Position numbers and translations under genes: made by a program. DNA of 64,000 nucleotides from Escherichia phage EC101, in the sequence record OL310488.1; one strand, given 5' to 3'. Shown one piece after another: positions 45,280 through 52,437 of this stretch (position 1 is the stretch's first letter; each line of letters begins with the position of its first letter). Below the pieces are notes generated by a model, which saw only the letters and a program-made list of their open reading frames with translations, ran no database searches and was not told where the DNA came from.

Positions 45280-46739
45280 TTCTTAAAATTCTGAACGAAA
45301 TAGCATCTATTGGTTCAACTAAGCAGAAGCAAGCAATTCTTGAAAAGAATAAAGATAATGAATTGCTTAAACGAGTATATCGTCTGACTTATTCTCGTGG
45401 GTTACAGTATTATATCAAGAAATGGCCTAAACCTGGTATTGCTACCCAGAGTTTTGGAATGCTGACTATTACTGATATGCTTGACTTCATTGAATTTACA
45501 TTAGCTACTCGAAAATTGACCGGAAATGCGGCAATTGAGGAATTAGTAGGTTATATTACTGACGGTAAAAAAGATGATGTTGAAGTTTTGCGTCGAGTGA
45601 TGATGCGAGACCTTGAATGTGGTGCTTCAGTATCTATTGCAAACAAAGTTTGGCCAGGTTTAATTCCTGAACAACCTCAAATGCTCGCAAGTTCTTATGA
45701 TGAAAAAGGCATTAATAAGAATATCAAATTTCCAGCCTTTGCCCAGTTAAAAGCTGATGGAGCTCGGTGCTTTGCCGAAGTCAGAGGTGATGAATTAGAT
45801 GACGTTCGTCTTTTATCACGAGCTGGTAATGAATATCTAGGATTAGATCTTCTTAAGGAAGAATTAATCAAAATGACCGCTGAAGCCCGCCAGATTCATC
45901 CAGAAGGCGTGTTAATTGATGGCGAATTGGTATACCATGAGCAAGTTGAAAAGGAGCCAGAAGGCCTAGATTTTCTTTTTGATGCTTATCCTGAAAACAG
46001 TAAAGCTAAAGAATTCGCCGAAGTAGCTGAATCACGTACTGCATCTAATGGCATCGCCAATAAATCTTTAAAGGGAACCATTTCTGAAAAAGAAGCACAA
46101 TGCATGAAGTTTCAGGTCTGGGATTATGTACCGTTGGTAGAAATATACGGTCTTCCTGCATTTCGTTTGAAATATGATGTACGTTTTTCTAAACTAGAAC
46201 AAATGACATCAGGCTATGATAAAGTAATTTTAATTGAAAACCAGGTAGTAAATAACCTAGACGAAGCCAAGGTAATTTATAAAAAGTATATTGACCAAGG
46301 TCTTGAAGGTATTATTCTCAAAAATATCGATGGATTATGGGAAAATGCTCGTTCAAAAAATCTCTATAAATTTAAAGAAGTAATTGATGTTGATTTAAAA
46401 ATTGTAGGAATTTATCCTCACCGTAAAGACCCTACTAAAGCAGGTGGATTTATTCTTGAGTCAGAGTGTGGAAAAATTAAAGTAAATGCTGGTTCAGGCT
46501 TAAAAGATAAAGCCGGTGTAAAATCGCATGAACTTGACCGTACTCGCATTATGGAAAACCAAAATTATTATATTGGAAAAATTCTAGAGTGCGAATGCAA
46601 CGGTTGGTTAAAATCTGATGGCCGCACTGATTACGTTAAATTATTTCTTCCGATTGCGATTCGTTTGCGTGAAGATAAAACTAAAGCTAATACATTCGAG
46701 GATGTATTTGGTGATTTTCATGAGGTAACTGGTTTATGA
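45276..46739 (+). CDS. 30: ATP-dependent DNA ligase
   Basis: 487-aa ORF; adenylation motif KADGAR (FAQLKADGARCF); matches T4 gp30. Confidence 0.95.
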   Translation: MILKILNEIASIGSTKQKQAILEKNKDNELLKRVYRLTYSRGLQYYIKKWPKPGIATQSFGMLTITDMLDFIEFTLATRKLTGNAAIEELVGYITDGKKDDVEVLRRVMMRDLECGASVSIANKVWPGLIPEQPQMLASSYDEKGINKNIKFPAFAQLKADGARCFAEVRGDELDDVRLLSRAGNEYLGLDLLKEELIKMTAEARQIHPEGVLIDGELVYHEQVEKEPEGLDFLFDAYPENSKAKEFAEVAESRTASNGIANKSLKGTISEKEAQCMKFQVWDYVPLVEIYGLPAFRLKYDVRFSKLEQMTSGYDKVILIENQVVNNLDEAKVIYKKYIDQGLEGIILKNIDGLWENARSKNLYKFKEVIDVDLKIVGIYPHRKDPTKAGGFILESECGKIKVNAGSGLKDKAGVKSHELDRTRIMENQNYYIGKILECECNGWLKSDGRTDYVKLFLPIAIRLREDKTKANTFEDVFGDFHEVTGL

Positions 46740-46924
46740 AAGCTTACTTAGAAACAATTGTCATTGCTCAAAAAGAAGGTGGAGATGTTTCTACTTCTGT
46801 ATCACAAGTCATTCTCGAATTTGTAGATGCATACGCTTATAATAAATTCACAGAAACATTTGATGCCTATGAAAAAGGTCCAAAGTTTGAAATATACCGT
46901 ACTCTCTTACCACTAGATTATTAA
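46736..46924 (+). CDS. hypothetical protein (62 aa)
   Basis: ATGA overlap with the ligase stop. Confidence 0.55.
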   Translation: MKAYLETIVIAQKEGGDVSTSVSQVILEFVDAYAYNKFTETFDAYEKGPKFEIYRTLLPLDY

Positions 46925-46948
46925 AGGCCTTCGGGCCTTTAATTTTAT
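46924..46948 (+). terminator. probable intrinsic terminator (AAAGGCC-TTCG-GGCCTTT followed by AATTTT)
   Basis: 7-bp stem with UUCG loop; weak T-run. Confidence 0.5.
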
Positions 46949-46976
46949 AAATAGAATAAACACTAGAGAGGCTATG

Positions 46977-49031
46977 ATGGAACTTATTACAGAATTATTT
47001 GACGAAGATACTACTCTTCCGATTACAAACTTAAATCCAAAGAAGAAAATACCGCAAATTTTTTCAGTTCATGTTGATGATGCAATTGAACAACCAGGCT
47101 TTCGTTTATGTACCTATACATCTGGAGGTGATACTAATCGCGATTTAAAGATGGGCGATAAAATGATGCATATTGTTCCTTTTACATTAACTGCTAAAGG
47201 TTCAATTGCTAAATTAAAAGGTCTTGGTCCAAGCCCAATTAATTATATCAATTCAGTTTTTACTGTTGCGATGCAAACAATGCGTCAGTATAAAATTGAT
47301 GCCTGTATGCTTCGTATTCTTAAGTCTAAAACCGCTGGTCAAGCTCGACAAATTCAAGTTATTGCTGATAGACTTATCCGTAGTCGTTCAGGTGGCAGAT
47401 ACGTCCTTCTTAAGGAACTCTGGGATTACGATAAAAAGTATGCATATATTCTTATACATCGCAAAAATGTATCACTAGAAGACATTCCGGGAGTTCCGGA
47501 AATTAGTACTGAGCTCTTTACTAAAGTTGAATCGAAGGTCGGTGATGTTTATATCAATAAAGATACTGGAGCTCAAGTAACTAAAAATGAGGCAATTGCA
47601 GCATCTATTGCGCAAGAAAATGATAAACGTTCTGACCAAGCTGTAATCGTTAAAGTTAAAATTTCCCGTAGAGCAATTGCGCAAAGTCAATCATTGGAAT
47701 CTTCTAGATTTGAAACGCCGATGTTTCAAAAATTTGAGGCTTCAGCAGCAGAATTAAATAAACCTGCTGACGCTCCTTTAATTTCTGACGCTAATGAATT
47801 AACTGTTATTTCTACTTCAGGATTTGCATTAGAGAATGCTCTTAGTAGTGTTACAGCTGGAATGGCATTCAGAGAAGCTTCTATAATTCCTGAAGATAAA
47901 GAATCTGATGTTAATGCAGAAATAAAAAATAAAGCTTTAGAAAGATTACGAAAAGAATCTATTACTTCAATAAAAACTTTAGAAACTATTGCTTCTATAG
48001 TTGATGATACTTTAGAAAAATATAAAGGTGCTTGGTTAGAAAGAAACATTAACAAGCATTCGCATTTAAATCAAGATGCTGCGAATGAGTTAGTACAAAA
48101 TTCTTGGAATGCAATAAAAACAAAGATTATTCGAAGAGAATTGCGTGGATATGCTCTTACCGCTGGATGGTCACTACATCCTATAGTCGAAAATAAAGAT
48201 TCATCTAAATACACACCGGCACAAAAACGCGGAATTCGTGAATACGTAAGTTCAGGATATGTAGACATAAATAACGCTCTTTTGGGATTATATAATCCAG
48301 ATGAGCGTACAAGTATTTTGACAGCATCTGATATAGAAAAAGCTATTGATAATTTAGATTCTGCCTTTAAAAATGGTGAACGATTACCAAAAGGTATTAC
48401 TTTGTATCGTTCACAACGAATGTTACCTTCAATATATGAAGCACTGGTAAAAAATCGAGTTTTTTATTTTAGAAACTTTGTGTCAACATCATTATATCCA
48501 AATATTTTTGGTACCTGGATGACTGATTCATCTGTGGGTGTTTTACCAGACGAAAAGCGTTTAAGTGTTTCTATTGATAAAACTGATGAAGGACTAGTAA
48601 ATTCTAGCGATAATTTAGTTGGAATTGGATGGGTTATTACTGGGGCTGATAAAGTCAATGTTGTTTTACCAGGTGGAAGTTTAGCACCTTCAAATGAAAT
48701 GGAAGTCATTTTGCCACGTGGATTAATGGTCAAAGTTAATAAAATAACCGATGCATCTTACAATGATGGAACAGTTAAAACTAACAACAAGCTTATTCAA
48801 GCTGAAGTTATGACCACAGAAGAACTCACCGAATCGGTAATTTATGACGGTGACCGTCTAATGGAAACCGGCGAAGTAGTTGCAATGACAGGTGATATTG
48901 AAATAGAAGACAGAGTTGACTTTGCATCATTTGTTTCATCAAACGTTAAACAGAAAGTAGAATCATCTCTTGGAATTATTGCGTCTTGTATAGATATTGC
49001 AAACATGCCTTACAAGTTCGTTCAAGGATAA
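46977..49031 (+). CDS. alt: Alt ADP-ribosyltransferase (virion-packaged; modifies host RNA polymerase alpha subunit)
   Basis: 684 aa from the ATG with GAGAGG SD; sequence matches T4 Alt as recalled; C-terminal R-S-E ADP-ribosyltransferase motifs (LYRSQ, FVSTSL, EVILPRG). Confidence 0.9.
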   Translation: MELITELFDEDTTLPITNLNPKKKIPQIFSVHVDDAIEQPGFRLCTYTSGGDTNRDLKMGDKMMHIVPFTLTAKGSIAKLKGLGPSPINYINSVFTVAMQTMRQYKIDACMLRILKSKTAGQARQIQVIADRLIRSRSGGRYVLLKELWDYDKKYAYILIHRKNVSLEDIPGVPEISTELFTKVESKVGDVYINKDTGAQVTKNEAIAASIAQENDKRSDQAVIVKVKISRRAIAQSQSLESSRFETPMFQKFEASAAELNKPADAPLISDANELTVISTSGFALENALSSVTAGMAFREASIIPEDKESDVNAEIKNKALERLRKESITSIKTLETIASIVDDTLEKYKGAWLERNINKHSHLNQDAANELVQNSWNAIKTKIIRRELRGYALTAGWSLHPIVENKDSSKYTPAQKRGIREYVSSGYVDINNALLGLYNPDERTSILTASDIEKAIDNLDSAFKNGERLPKGITLYRSQRMLPSIYEALVKNRVFYFRNFVSTSLYPNIFGTWMTDSSVGVLPDEKRLSVSIDKTDEGLVNSSDNLVGIGWVITGADKVNVVLPGGSLAPSNEMEVILPRGLMVKVNKITDASYNDGTVKTNNKLIQAEVMTTEELTESVIYDGDRLMETGEVVAMTGDIEIEDRVDFASFVSSNVKQKVESSLGIIASCIDIANMPYKFVQG

Positions 49032-49034
49032 ATC

Positions 49035-51092
49035 ATGGAACTTATTACAGAATTATTTGACGGCGCTTCGGCGCCGGTTGTTAACTTAAATCCTAAGCAT
49101 AAAATACCACAAATTTTTGCTATTCAAGCCGGCGAAGAAAGCGTGCTTCCTGGATTTAGATTTTGTACATATACCTCTGGTGGTGATACGAATAAAAACG
49201 TTAAGCCAGGCGATAAAATGATGCATATCGTAATGATAGGTGTTAATGAGAAACTATCATTAGTTAAGCTTAAAAACTTGGGTGGAAATCCAATTGGTGT
49301 CATTAATGCCGTTTTTGATACTGCTCTTCAAACAATGAAACAGTATAAAATCGACGCATGCCTATTCCGCGTACTAAAAAGTAAAACAAATGGCGCAGCT
49401 CGTCAAATGCAAGTTATTGCTGACCGTTTAGTACGTACTAAAGGAGCAGGTCGATATGTTCTTTTAAAGGAAATCTGGGACTATGATAAGAAATATGCAT
49501 ATATTATGGTTTACCGTAAAAATGCCAATTTAGAAGACATTCCAGGTGTACCTCCTATTTCAACTGAGTTATTCACAAAAGTTGAATCAAAGGTTGGTGA
49601 TGTTTATGTAGATGTTAAAACAGGTAATGCTGTTCCTAAAGCTGTTGCTGTTGCTGCTTCTATTGCTTTAGAAAATGATAAGCGCACGGACCAAGCTGTT
49701 ATTCAGAAAACTAAAATTAGTCGTCGATTAGCAGCACAAGCTCAATATTCTACTGTTGATGCTTCACTTCAGGGTGATAGCTTCGCTGCTAAGAAATATC
49801 AAGAGTTTGAATCTAAAGTTCCGGTATATAAAGCAGAAGGTCCGATGAACTCTGGCGTTATCCAGATTGGTTCAAACTTCAGCAAAGGAGCTATCGGTGG
49901 TATGAGAAGTGCTTCTCGTTTTAAATCTAACGATTATGAACTAGAAAGCTTCCGAAATCATATTGCATTGGCCCATGCACGTTTACGTGATCCATCTATC
50001 AAGTTGCAGAGCGATATAACATATCAAGGTTCTCAAGAATATTTAAAGAATAAAGAATTCTTTGATTATAAAACTGATAAAATTTTAAGCGATCTTGCTG
50101 ACATTAATATTTCTAATAGCTTTGATGTTATTAAGAAAATTATTAATGATTTAGTTAAAGGTTCTAAAACCACACCAGATGAAAAGACAGCTATTATTCA
50201 ATTTGTCATGAATGGCATTTATAAATTGATTAATGAATCTGCTGCCCAGGCATATGAATACGCAAGCACCGAAGTAGCTCCAAAAGGACTGACTCAGGCT
50301 GAATCTGATGTAATTGAAGATTATTGTGCAGATTCATATGTTGAAATGAACTCGTTCCTTTTGGGTAAACCAGATTCTACCCGTGAAGAATATATGGAAC
50401 GAGCTATTAAGCACATCGAGACGTTGGATTCTGCATTCGCTAAAGGTTCAGTTCTTCCTCCAGGAACTACGCTTTATCGTGGACAAGAAGTTACCTTTAA
50501 AACTTTGCGTCATAACATTGAAAACAAAATGTTCTATTTCAAGAACTTCGTATCCACATCGCTTAAACCAAATATATTCGGTGAGCATGGTAAAAACTAT
50601 ATGGCTCTAGATGATTCTGGCGCAGTATTTTCTGGCGAAGGAGAAGGTTCCGTTGATGCAGAAGATTTGATGCATATGGGTAGTCATTCTACATATGCTA
50701 ATGAAGATGCTGAAACTAGCGTGGGTATGGTAATTAAAGGAGCTGAGCGAATCAAAGTTATCGTTCCAGGTCATTTATCAGGATTTCCATCAGAAGCTGA
50801 AGTTATTCTACCACGTGGAATTTTACTGAAGATTAATAAAGTAAGTACTTACTTTATGAAAGAAACTGCTTATAACAAGTATCTAATCGAAGGTACAATC
50901 GTTCCTCCTTCTGAACAATTAGAAGAATCAGTATATGATGGAGACCATCTAATGGAAACTGGTGAAGTTCGTCCAATGGCTGGATTTAATCAATTCCTTG
51001 TAGAAGAATCAAAAGAAGAGGAAAATGAAGTTTCTCAAATCTTAGCTTCTTTGGTTAACATCAACGGAATGTCTAAAAAGTTCAAAATGTAG
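49035..51092 (+). CDS. Alt-like ADP-ribosyltransferase paralog (second copy, divergent central region)
   Basis: 685-aa ORF 3 nt after alt; N-terminal about 210 aa and C-terminal ART core (LYRGQ, FVSTSL, EVILPRG) are clearly homologous to Alt; the middle is diverged. Confidence 0.85.
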   Translation: MELITELFDGASAPVVNLNPKHKIPQIFAIQAGEESVLPGFRFCTYTSGGDTNKNVKPGDKMMHIVMIGVNEKLSLVKLKNLGGNPIGVINAVFDTALQTMKQYKIDACLFRVLKSKTNGAARQMQVIADRLVRTKGAGRYVLLKEIWDYDKKYAYIMVYRKNANLEDIPGVPPISTELFTKVESKVGDVYVDVKTGNAVPKAVAVAASIALENDKRTDQAVIQKTKISRRLAAQAQYSTVDASLQGDSFAAKKYQEFESKVPVYKAEGPMNSGVIQIGSNFSKGAIGGMRSASRFKSNDYELESFRNHIALAHARLRDPSIKLQSDITYQGSQEYLKNKEFFDYKTDKILSDLADINISNSFDVIKKIINDLVKGSKTTPDEKTAIIQFVMNGIYKLINESAAQAYEYASTEVAPKGLTQAESDVIEDYCADSYVEMNSFLLGKPDSTREEYMERAIKHIETLDSAFAKGSVLPPGTTLYRGQEVTFKTLRHNIENKMFYFKNFVSTSLKPNIFGEHGKNYMALDDSGAVFSGEGEGSVDAEDLMHMGSHSTYANEDAETSVGMVIKGAERIKVIVPGHLSGFPSEAEVILPRGILLKINKVSTYFMKETAYNKYLIEGTIVPPSEQLEESVYDGDHLMETGEVRPMAGFNQFLVEESKEEENEVSQILASLVNINGMSKKFKM

Positions 51093-51121
51093 TTTACAAG
51101 TCCCTCGTGTTGTGTTATAGT
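51092..51121 (+). promoter_or_regulatory. T4-type early promoter (copy 2 of the 54-bp repeated promoter-leader module)
   Basis: identical to 35317..35370 over 54 bp. Confidence 0.5.
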
Positions 51122-51152
51122 AGTCTTACTGACATAACATGAGGAACACAAA

Positions 51153-51443
51153 ATGAAATCTTCTTTACGCTTTTTAGGCCAAGAGCTCGTCGTTGAAGGC
51201 GTTATTCCTGCTGATAATGCTTTTAATGAAGCAGTTTACGATGAATTTATTAAAATTTTTGGAACAGATAAAAAGTTCGGAATTTTTCCTTCTGAAAATT
51301 TTTCAAAGCCAGAACAGACTGAAAGTATTTTTCAGGGTGTAGTAACAGGTAAATTTGAGTCAGAAGCTCCGGTAAAAATTGAAGTTTATATTGAAGACAG
51401 TTTAGTTGCTTCAGTTTCTGCTTTCATTTCATTCCGTAAATAA
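51153..51443 (+). CDS. hypothetical protein (96 aa)
   Basis: GAGGAACACAAA-ATG downstream of the repeated promoter. Confidence 0.6.
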   Translation: MKSSLRFLGQELVVEGVIPADNAFNEAVYDEFIKIFGTDKKFGIFPSENFSKPEQTESIFQGVVTGKFESEAPVKIEVYIEDSLVASVSAFISFRK

Positions 51444-51449
51444 AAATAT

Positions 51450-51467
51450 GGGGACCGAAAGGTCCCC
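51450..51467. terminator. bidirectional terminator hairpin (GGGGACC-GAAA-GGTCCCC) between convergent genes
   Basis: 7-bp GC stem flanked by A-run upstream and T-rich downstream; sits between the plus-strand 51153 ORF and minus-strand gene 54. Confidence 0.7.
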
Positions 51468-51471
51468 ATTG

Positions 51472-52437
51472 TTATATTGCTCCTAATATTTTACTCTGCG
51501 AATTGACAATTCCTGTCATAGTATTAATATTTGAAATGCTTCCTGCATTTCCCCCTAATCTACTAAGTCGTGAAAGCGAATTAGATAGTCCAGTAACACC
51601 TCCACTATTTCCGAGAACGCTTTGAATACCATTTATAGTAGCAGATTCAAGCCATTCAAGGGCAGCTTGTCTATCAACTGCTCCAGCCTGCATCACTCTA
51701 TACGCAAAAGTAACATCAAATGTAGTTATTTGGTTATCTCCATCATATGATAACTCAGGAGCGCTTACGGACACTGGAATGCATCCAGTGAACATCACCG
51801 CAGTATGTGGTAATCCATTGCGAGAATGAAGATTAACCTGAATATCTGCCTCGACATCTTGCGGCAAAGCACGCAATCCAGTTACTGGGTCTTGAACAGC
51901 GTTAACCCAGTCTTGCATTGCACGATAGTTACAAGCTTCTGAATCCATTCTGAATGAAATAACCAAAGGGTCTAATTCTCTCCCAGTTATACGAATATTA
52001 GGAGAATTATAGTTCCAGTCAGTTTCATAGGATAATCTATTCTCTGGCATTTTTACAGAGTATATCATCAATCCAGATGAGTTATATGCCACGTTAAAGA
52101 AGTCAATTAAATATGTACCAACTGTAAATGAGCCTAATAAACTTTGAACTGTACGTTGACTCATGGCACCAATAAGATATTTACTAACCCCTGATTTTCT
52201 TATCAGTTTTTGTGTGCCAGCTGTAATTAGCGTAGTAATTCCATGATTAATATCGCCTTGAGTTAATCCTAACCAATCTGAATTTAGGCCCAAGTTATTA
52301 TAAGAAAAGTTGCTAATTGAACTTATCAACGAAGAGCTTTTAGTTGATGGAGTTGTAGCAAAAACACAGCTGAACATATTATTACGTTGGAAATCTGCGT
52401 TTATTGCTTGATTATTAAATTCCTCTAAAGAATACAT
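51472..52437 (-). CDS. 54: gp54 baseplate tail tube initiator
   Basis: 321-aa ORF; T4 gp54 is 320 aa; synteny 29-48-54. Confidence 0.9.
   Translation of the reverse strand: MYSLEEFNNQAINADFQRNNMFSCVFATTPSTKSSSLISSISNFSYNNLGLNSDWLGLTQGDINHGITTLITAGTQKLIRKSGVSKYLIGAMSQRTVQSLLGSFTVGTYLIDFFNVAYNSSGLMIYSVKMPENRLSYETDWNYNSPNIRITGRELDPLVISFRMDSEACNYRAMQDWVNAVQDPVTGLRALPQDVEADIQVNLHSRNGLPHTAVMFTGCIPVSVSAPELSYDGDNQITTFDVTFAYRVMQAGAVDRQAALEWLESATINGIQSVLGNSGGVTGLSNSLSRLSRLGGNAGSISNINTMTGIVNSQSKILGAI

Follow-up and report, generated by a model that had tools for sequence, protein, structure and literature searches.

Two alt genes in tandem

Escherichia phage EC101 (sequence record OL310488.1), of which a stretch of 64,000 nucleotides was analysed (the window), carries two adjacent open reading frames (ORFs) related to the alt gene of phage T4. 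T4 Alt is an NAD+:arginine ADP-ribosyltransferase (ART) carried within the phage head and injected together with the DNA (PMC9026906, PMC5694885). It ADP-ribosylates host RNA polymerase alpha and other host proteins (PMC5512222, PMC9026906, PMC9503650), targets that are known for T4 Alt only. ORF A (46977..49031, 684 residues) is the orthologue of T4 alt, and ORF B (49035..51092, 685 residues) is a second, intact alt copy; both lie on the plus strand, as do the domain features given below. An earlier note on this DNA, made from the sequence without database searches, had described the two as lying head to tail 3 nucleotides apart, and the ORF coordinates agree: the trinucleotide ATC separates the TAA of ORF A from the ATG of ORF B. 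For ORF A, the candidate starts 46974 and 46977 both lead to the stop at 49031, and 46977 (MELITE...) is preferred because the mapped N-terminal cleavage site of T4 Alt is numbered ITE-6.

ORFs A and B align by full-length BLASTP with 41% identity (E 1e-158), a sequence match that cannot be chance. Both match PHROG 802, 'Alt-like RNA polymerase ADP-ribosyltransferase' (ORF A, residues 1-683 on positions 2-674 of the 674-position profile, E 6e-262; ORF B, residues 1-685, end to end, E 4e-256), and both match Pfam PF03496 (ADPrib_exo_Tox), at 120.9 bits for A and 72.3 bits for B with a cut-off of 23.4. The catalytic core, which the note had considered homologous, contains a complete R-S-ExE motif in each protein: R478, S503-T-S505 and E574-x-E576 in ORF A, and R482, S507-T-S509 and E587-x-E589 in ORF B. 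In 64 family representatives, the positions of R478, S503, E574 and E576 are invariant (64/64), with S505 retained in 63/64. With PF03496 above the Pfam gathering threshold and an ART fold, the two proteins belong to the R-S-E clade of ARTs, and the predicted fold of both ART domains is C3/VIP2/Vis-like. Judged from these sequences, A and B are very probably paralogous, active ARTs. The reading of ORF B as an Alt paralogue thus withstands the two findings that could have overturned it, as the alignment runs full length and the catalytic Arg and Glu residues are present.

Other annotation was sparse. Among Pfam domains at E <= 1, nothing besides PF03496 was found in A or B save a sub-threshold CesA match in B, and the scan placed no MuF or other known head-protein domain N-terminal to the ART domain in either. 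The N-terminal region looked unannotated in hmmscan because PF26846 (Tevenvirinae_ADPRT) is absent from the Pfam-A copy used; precomputed annotation of B-type proteins, and of hybrid proteins of the kind described below, lists PF26846 together with PF03496. PADLOC defence models (E <= 0.01) matched none of A, B and the two small flanking ORFs, and NCBIfam classification likewise gave no match.

A and B share a common architecture: a 6-residue N-terminal propeptide, an N-terminal domain (N-domain) of ~230 residues, a helical centre of ~175 residues, the ART domain, a protease site and a C-terminal propeptide of ~55-65 residues. In ORF A, the N-propeptide MELITE (residues 1-6, 46977..46994) ends at ITE-6, a motif for the prohead protease gp21, and is followed by a family-conserved N-domain predicted to be alpha/beta (residues 7-238, 46995..47690), a variable centre of T4 type predicted to be all-helical (residues 239-410, 47691..48206), an ART domain ending at the gp21 motif LTE-619 (residues 411-619, 48207..48833) and a C-propeptide, removed in T4 Alt (residues 620-684, 48834..49028). 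In ORF B, the corresponding parts are a predicted N-propeptide MELITE (residues 1-6, 49035..49052), the conserved N-domain (residues 7-239, 49053..49751), a variable centre of B type, predicted all-helical at a predicted local distance difference test (pLDDT) of ~75-90 (residues 240-420, 49752..50294), an ART domain ending at LEE-631, which aligns with LTE-619 of T4 Alt (residues 421-631, 50295..50927), and a predicted C-propeptide (residues 632-685, 50928..51089). Each C-propeptide holds a YDGD-x-LMETGEV island (48843-48892 and 50934-50983) just past the C-terminal protease site; within the island is another LxE motif (LME-630 in A and LME-641 in B), and the D-G-D of the island is conserved in 54-56 of the 64 family representatives. 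The island may act as a second cleavage site, in tethering or in autoinhibition.

Identity between A and B is distributed unevenly over these parts. The N-domain (A 1-238) is 68% identical (161/238), the ART domain (A 411-600) 38% and the tail (A 601-684) 33%. The note had placed the N-terminal homology in the first ~210 residues; the homology is confirmed, and it reaches further, to about residue 238.

The variable centre

The centres (A 239-410 and B 240-420) are 17% identical, which is at noise level, with sliding identity of 10-20%. When excised and compared directly, they show no detectable similarity by BLASTP (E = 1.3), and profiles of the two types, built from 10-11 relatives per type, align with an HHalign probability of 2%, while a third type is recovered at 96% with the B-type profile. 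The note had spoken of an unrelated central region of roughly 250 residues. The lack of detectable similarity is upheld, the length is revised to ~170-180 residues, and the word 'unrelated' may overstate the case, as both centres are predicted to be all-helical with helices at near-equal positions. The AlphaFold models, computed from shallow, overlapping alignments of 18 (B) and 17 (A) sequences, have a mean pLDDT of 72.4 for ORF B and 71.5 for ORF A, and both consist of an alpha/beta N-domain to ~225, an all-helical region from ~230 to ~470, the ART core and a low-confidence tail. Helices in the modelled centre of ORF A span 248-260, 272-280, 282-294, 306-324, 332-361 and 366-405, and those of ORF B 250-260, 273-282, 286-295, 301-318, 328-355 and 362-414. 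Since the helices fall near the same positions, the models suggest that the two centres may be extremely diverged homologues and not unrelated insertions. Structure matches in BFVD have low TM-scores (template modelling scores), owing to multi-domain geometry. Three of these matches (I3WW50, A0A410T5F4 and A0A410T542, from Acinetobacter phages ZZ1 and Henu6) are annotated 'split RNA polymerase ADP-ribosylase', and split Alt genes in these T4-like phages may mark the module boundaries seen in A and B.

The same pattern extends to the family as a whole. When 1.84 billion representatives were searched exhaustively, 112 relatives emerged, many of which match ORF B in two stretches, ~2-243 and ~420-684, with the middle left unmatched. 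In the 64 full-length representatives, the centres were delimited with hidden Markov models of the flanking modules; they measure 124-200 residues (median 177) and fall into 36 clusters unlinked by BLAST, with those of A and B in two different large clusters (11 and 12 members). Column conservation accordingly has a trough at A 241-420, and no recognisable domain was found in the centre. Within the B type, the protein is 98-99% identical across the window, T2, T6 and vB_EcoM_FT (FT), and 178 of 181 centre residues are identical between the window and FT. Among these four phages, the ratio of nonsynonymous to synonymous divergence (dN/dS) in the B centre is 0.02-0.09 at a synonymous divergence (dS) of 0.10-0.21, similar to other regions of the gene.

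Low conservation, variable length across the family and the lack of a recognisable domain would all suit a centre that is a mere spacer between a packaging domain and an enzyme, its divergence reflecting relaxed constraint. This is improbable, given that the B-type centre matches the remainder of the protein in conservation, that well-ordered long helices are predicted for it at the pLDDT noted above, and that the centres form discrete types with no continuum between them, with a sharp cassette replacement in the first gene. By the measure of strong purifying selection among B orthologues, the centre is not a drifting linker.

The cassette replacement is seen when the first gene of the window (47691-48833) is compared with that of FT (L004, 3287-5380; T2 and T6 are L005 and L006). 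The N-domain is 99.6% identical between the two alleles, the centre 34%, the ART domain 64% and the tail 93%; along the whole of ORF B, these two genomes are 98-99% identical. A first-gene allele of 697 residues is carried by T2, T6 and FT, and is present in many other Tequatrovirus genomes; the window and T4 carry the other allele. From the aligned sequences, this looks like a recombinational swap of a cassette made up of the centre and ART domain between near-identical genomes. No description of such cassette-like behaviour of the centre was found in the literature searched.

Distribution and age of the pair

The tandem alt pair is already known and annotated, and is not new. The 4.8 kb locus is 100% identical to that of Yersinia phage PYPS2T (Tequatrovirus), in whose RefSeq entry both genes are labelled 'Alt-like RNA polymerase ADP-ribosyltransferase'. 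The T4 GenBank record notes that alt.-1 and alt.-2 represent a deletion plus frame shift in a second alt copy, and T4 alt.-1/alt.-2 and ORFs of RB49 and 44RR have been described as paralogous alt duplications (Nolan et al., 2006; PMC1524935). Aligned with the window, the T4 remnant is 97.2% identical in nucleotides to 49023-49382 and then 98.9% identical to 51073-51160, so the deletion removes 1.69 kb internal to ORF B (codons ~117-680).

T4 is the exception in this respect. T2 and T6 have an intact ORF B in the same position (98.7-98.8% identity), and a B-type centre at least 90% identical occurs in 401 phage records. Of 499 matching records, 91, T4 among them, have a contiguous T4-type deletion junction, and ORF B is kept by ~80% of sequenced close relatives of T4. 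From this distribution, the tandem pair is the normal state in Tequatrovirus. Only 174 records carry a first-gene centre with at least 90% identity to the T4 type. Combinations of alleles, estimated by subtraction and not counted, come to ~80 records with A and B like the window, ~320 with the other first-gene allele and B, and ~90 with A and a deleted B. The internal deletion in T4 and 90 other records is what would be expected if ORF B were a decaying duplicate heading for loss, as in T4. That reading is hardly credible for the window gene, as ORF B is intact, its catalytic residues are complete and it occurs in ~400 records, and it is contradicted by the selection signal: among the window, T2, T6 and FT the protein is conserved at 98-99%, and dN/dS lies well below 1.

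The note had proposed a pairwise alignment with dN/dS, and a comparison of the alt locus across T-even genomes for dating the duplication. In addition to the 41% identity given above, these show that dS between A and B has reached saturation in all regions (1.0-1.7), with an N-domain dN/dS of ~0.2. B-like centres are also found in remoter representatives and in 707-residue proteins whose names refer to phages JS10 and KM16. Saturated dS, together with B-like centres in other genera, places the duplication before the origin of the genus. Recent gene conversion between the copies was considered and ruled out, as dS is saturated throughout and the sole long exact match is the first 28 nucleotides. 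These 28 nucleotides (46977-47004 and 49035-49062) are identical in the two ORFs; the rest of the N-domain has ~67% nucleotide identity with saturated synonymous sites. This suggests either a nucleotide-level constraint, on translation initiation or the propeptide, or micro-conversion.

Two records depart from the usual arrangement. In NiC89, three places match, and a third alt copy was rejected as the explanation: ORF B lies ~1.6 kb from the end of the linear record, so that the first gene, cut in two by the ends of the record, most likely accounts for the extra place. In Logan contig SRR24155011_2765, a single hybrid alt gene (L007, 4001-6055; protein P0005) replaces the tandem pair. Here, nucleotides 1 to ~575 of ORF A are joined in frame to the rest of ORF B, and the flanking sequence runs collinear with that of the window, the arrangement that a deletion between tandem copies would leave. 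The hybrid may be a natural deletion via a short shared stretch (...GGTGATGTTTAT) or an assembly artefact. The gene of this contig equivalent to alt.-3 carries Pfam DUF5498.

Expression, delivery and possible role

The alt pair lies in a conserved setting. The gene order is DNA ligase (487 residues), a 62-residue alt.1 homologue, A, B and a 96-residue alt.-3 homologue, followed by the convergent genes 54, 48 and 29 of baseplate and tail; the position between ligase (30)/alt.1 and baseplate gene 54 is the same in T4, T2, T6 and FT. The sequence TATAAATA, the consensus of T4 late promoters, lies at 46946..46953 on the plus strand, 24 nucleotides 5′ of the ORF A start, and a pattern scan found it to be the sole exact plus-strand match within 46000-51600. 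As the only late promoter of the locus is 5′ of A, ORF B is probably co-transcribed late with A. Late promoters are discussed in Nolan et al. (2006; PMC1524935). The AAGGA ribosome-binding site of ORF B lies within the final codons of ORF A. A sigma-70 promoter scan returned 21 sites against 19.1 expected from shuffles, which is not above expectation, and was not used; no Rfam families were found in 46000-52000.

Several hairpins border or interrupt this unit. After the alt.1 homologue, a plus-strand hairpin with a UUCG loop (46920..46943) is followed by a U-rich stretch; its folding energy is -13.5 kcal/mol (z = -3.67), and none of 200 shuffles was as stable. It is probably an intrinsic terminator or an RNA-stabilising element for upstream transcripts. 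Downstream, a bidirectional terminator-like hairpin (51448..51469) separates the alt unit from the convergent gene 54. Within ORF B, a UUCG tetraloop closed by a perfect GC stem (CGGCGC-UUCG-GCGCCG; centroid -12.8 kcal/mol) occupies 49062-49077, codons 10-14, beginning 27 nucleotides into the coding sequence; the corresponding ORF A sequence is unstructured, and the peptide encoded at the stem, DGASAPV, is kept in T4 alt.-1. The stem may affect the mRNA stability or translation of ORF B.

The alt.-3 homologue (51153..51443, plus strand, 96 residues) stands directly 3′ of the two ART genes and is probably part of the same transcription unit. T4 mutants with a C-terminally extended Alt.-3 evade CmdTAC, an ADP-ribosyltransferase defence system, by blocking CmdA degradation (PMC11618068).

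Processing of T4 Alt by the gp21 prohead protease has been mapped by mass spectrometry, with the loss of 6 N-terminal residues at ITE-6 (PMC5694885) and of 63 C-terminal residues at LTE-619 (PMC5694885, PMC9026906). At the sequence level, ORF A has both of these motifs, and ORF B has ITE-6 and, at the aligned column, LEE-631. The Glu residues of the N-terminal and C-terminal motifs are conserved in 63/64 and 61/64 representatives, respectively. It is likely that ORF B is packaged and processed. Packaging of both proteins had been suggested in the earlier note, and it gains indirect support from the retention of both gp21 motifs and from probable late co-transcription.

ORF B could instead be an active ART that is not packaged and acts late in the producing cell, like ModA/ModB, with only A injected. 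A literature search found no virion proteomics for ORF B, and the capsid targeting of Alt beyond the short propeptide is undefined, both of which leave room for this possibility. It is nevertheless improbable in view of the identical MELITE, the 68%-identical N-domain and the LxE/IxE motifs at aligned positions, and of the place of ORF B, which has no promoter of its own, behind the late promoter of A. The hybrid of an A N-terminus with a B body, natural or assembled, is moreover the sole alt gene of its contig.

The best overall explanation, which we consider likely, is that the locus encodes two ancient Alt paralogues, both injected ARTs, that differ in their helical centre. Alt itself is a mono-ADP-ribosyltransferase of the R-S-E clade that enters the prohead core, is cut back by the prohead protease and is injected. 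Under this model, ORF B would be transcribed late from the promoter 5′ of ORF A and translated from its own AAGGA site. The N-terminal region that it has in common with Alt would direct the protein to the prohead, and it would be cut behind Glu6 and Glu631 and be injected together with Alt. As for the helical centre, it would most likely be an exchangeable module that positions or selects substrates for the ART domain, so that the host proteins modified by the two enzymes as infection begins would differ in part. The note had raised the idea that the divergent middle retargets the enzyme, and this fits a centre that, by sequence comparison, is hypervariable between types and constrained within a type. 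That the centre sets distinct targets is a proposition somewhat short of even odds. Still more tentatively, ORF B may be a second virion-delivered ART with its own host targets, and the Alt family a modular platform for injected effectors, in which a conserved N-domain for packaging and ejection and a conserved ART are linked by a swappable helical targeting cassette exchanged by recombination.

A redundant ORF B would be packaged and would modify the host proteins that Alt modifies (RNA polymerase alpha and others), and having the pair would mainly raise dose or robustness. A and B have the N-domain, the catalytic motif and the processing motifs in common, ORF B was lost in T4 without an evident laboratory defect, and T4 Alt is itself non-essential (PMC9026906). 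Even so, redundancy is unlikely to be the explanation: the centres lack detectable similarity, yet the B centre is under the strong constraint described above, ORF B remains intact in ~400 records, and it is rare for pure redundancy to maintain two constrained modules so unlike each other over a divergence at which dS is saturated.

A number of points weigh against two injected paralogues with a target-selecting centre. T4, which is without ORF B, grows normally, which makes ORF B dispensable on laboratory hosts, and its function could overlap that of Alt. ORF B has no known target, and nothing on virion proteomics or function of the second copy was found in the literature. The role given to the centre is drawn only from its evolutionary pattern, and the like helix layout of the two modelled centres may partly reflect shallow, overlapping alignments.

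As a genome feature, the pair is ordinary; what it offers is a reminder and a starting point. In being without a second ART that most of its sequenced close relatives keep under strong purifying selection, T4 is an unusual model phage, and this absence is why the second enzyme has no functional characterisation. The cassette-like centre provides a testable hypothesis for substrate choice by injected ARTs, which could help to account for the ways in which T2/T6 differ from T4 in host takeover or defence sensitivity. If ORF B does have its own host targets, work on T4, whose laboratory form has deleted most of the gene, would for fifty years have missed an early host-takeover or anti-defence activity of T2, T6 and most Tequatrovirus.

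Comparison with known systems places the two proteins among several families. ORF A is the orthologue of T4 Alt, at 98.4% identity, and ORF B resembles T4 Alt in architecture, position, R-S-ExE motif and both gp21 motifs, while differing in a centre (~180 residues) without detectable similarity and in an ART domain that is 38% identical. T4 alt.-1/alt.-2 are the same gene as ORF B, with 97-99% nucleotide identity over the retained parts; in T4, ~1.69 kb has been lost and a frameshift acquired, whereas the window gene is intact. T2 and T6 differ from the window in their first gene, which is the 697-residue allele, while the window combines a T4-type first gene with an intact second. The C3/VIP2/iota/Vis/Certhrax toxins (PF03496) have the same catalytic fold and motif as the Alt proteins. 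However, the toxins are delivered by binary-toxin or secretion domains, and the Alt proteins by a Tevenvirinae-specific N-domain (PF26846) together with prohead-protease processing. ModA and ModB of T4 are proteins of ~200 residues that are expressed early and lack the N-domain, centre and propeptides. Like the Alt proteins, they are phage R-S-E clade ARTs, paralogous to the Alt ART domain, but they are not injected (PMC5512222). MuF-fused ARTs and polyvalent phage proteins are also head-packaged effectors injected with the DNA (PMC5512222, PMC9503650), and Aeromonas phage 44RR2.8t has a full-length alt duplication, 44RR ORF187c (PMC1524935). Finally, the internal proteins IPI-IPIII of T4 resemble the Alt proteins in that variable injected cargo follows an N-terminal targeting peptide that is conserved and cleavable. 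T-even phages are polymorphic at the IP loci. IPI-IPIII are small and non-enzymatic, with a targeting sequence of 10-20 residues, whereas in the Alt proteins the N-propeptide has 6 residues and is followed by a large conserved N-domain, and another propeptide lies at the C-terminus.

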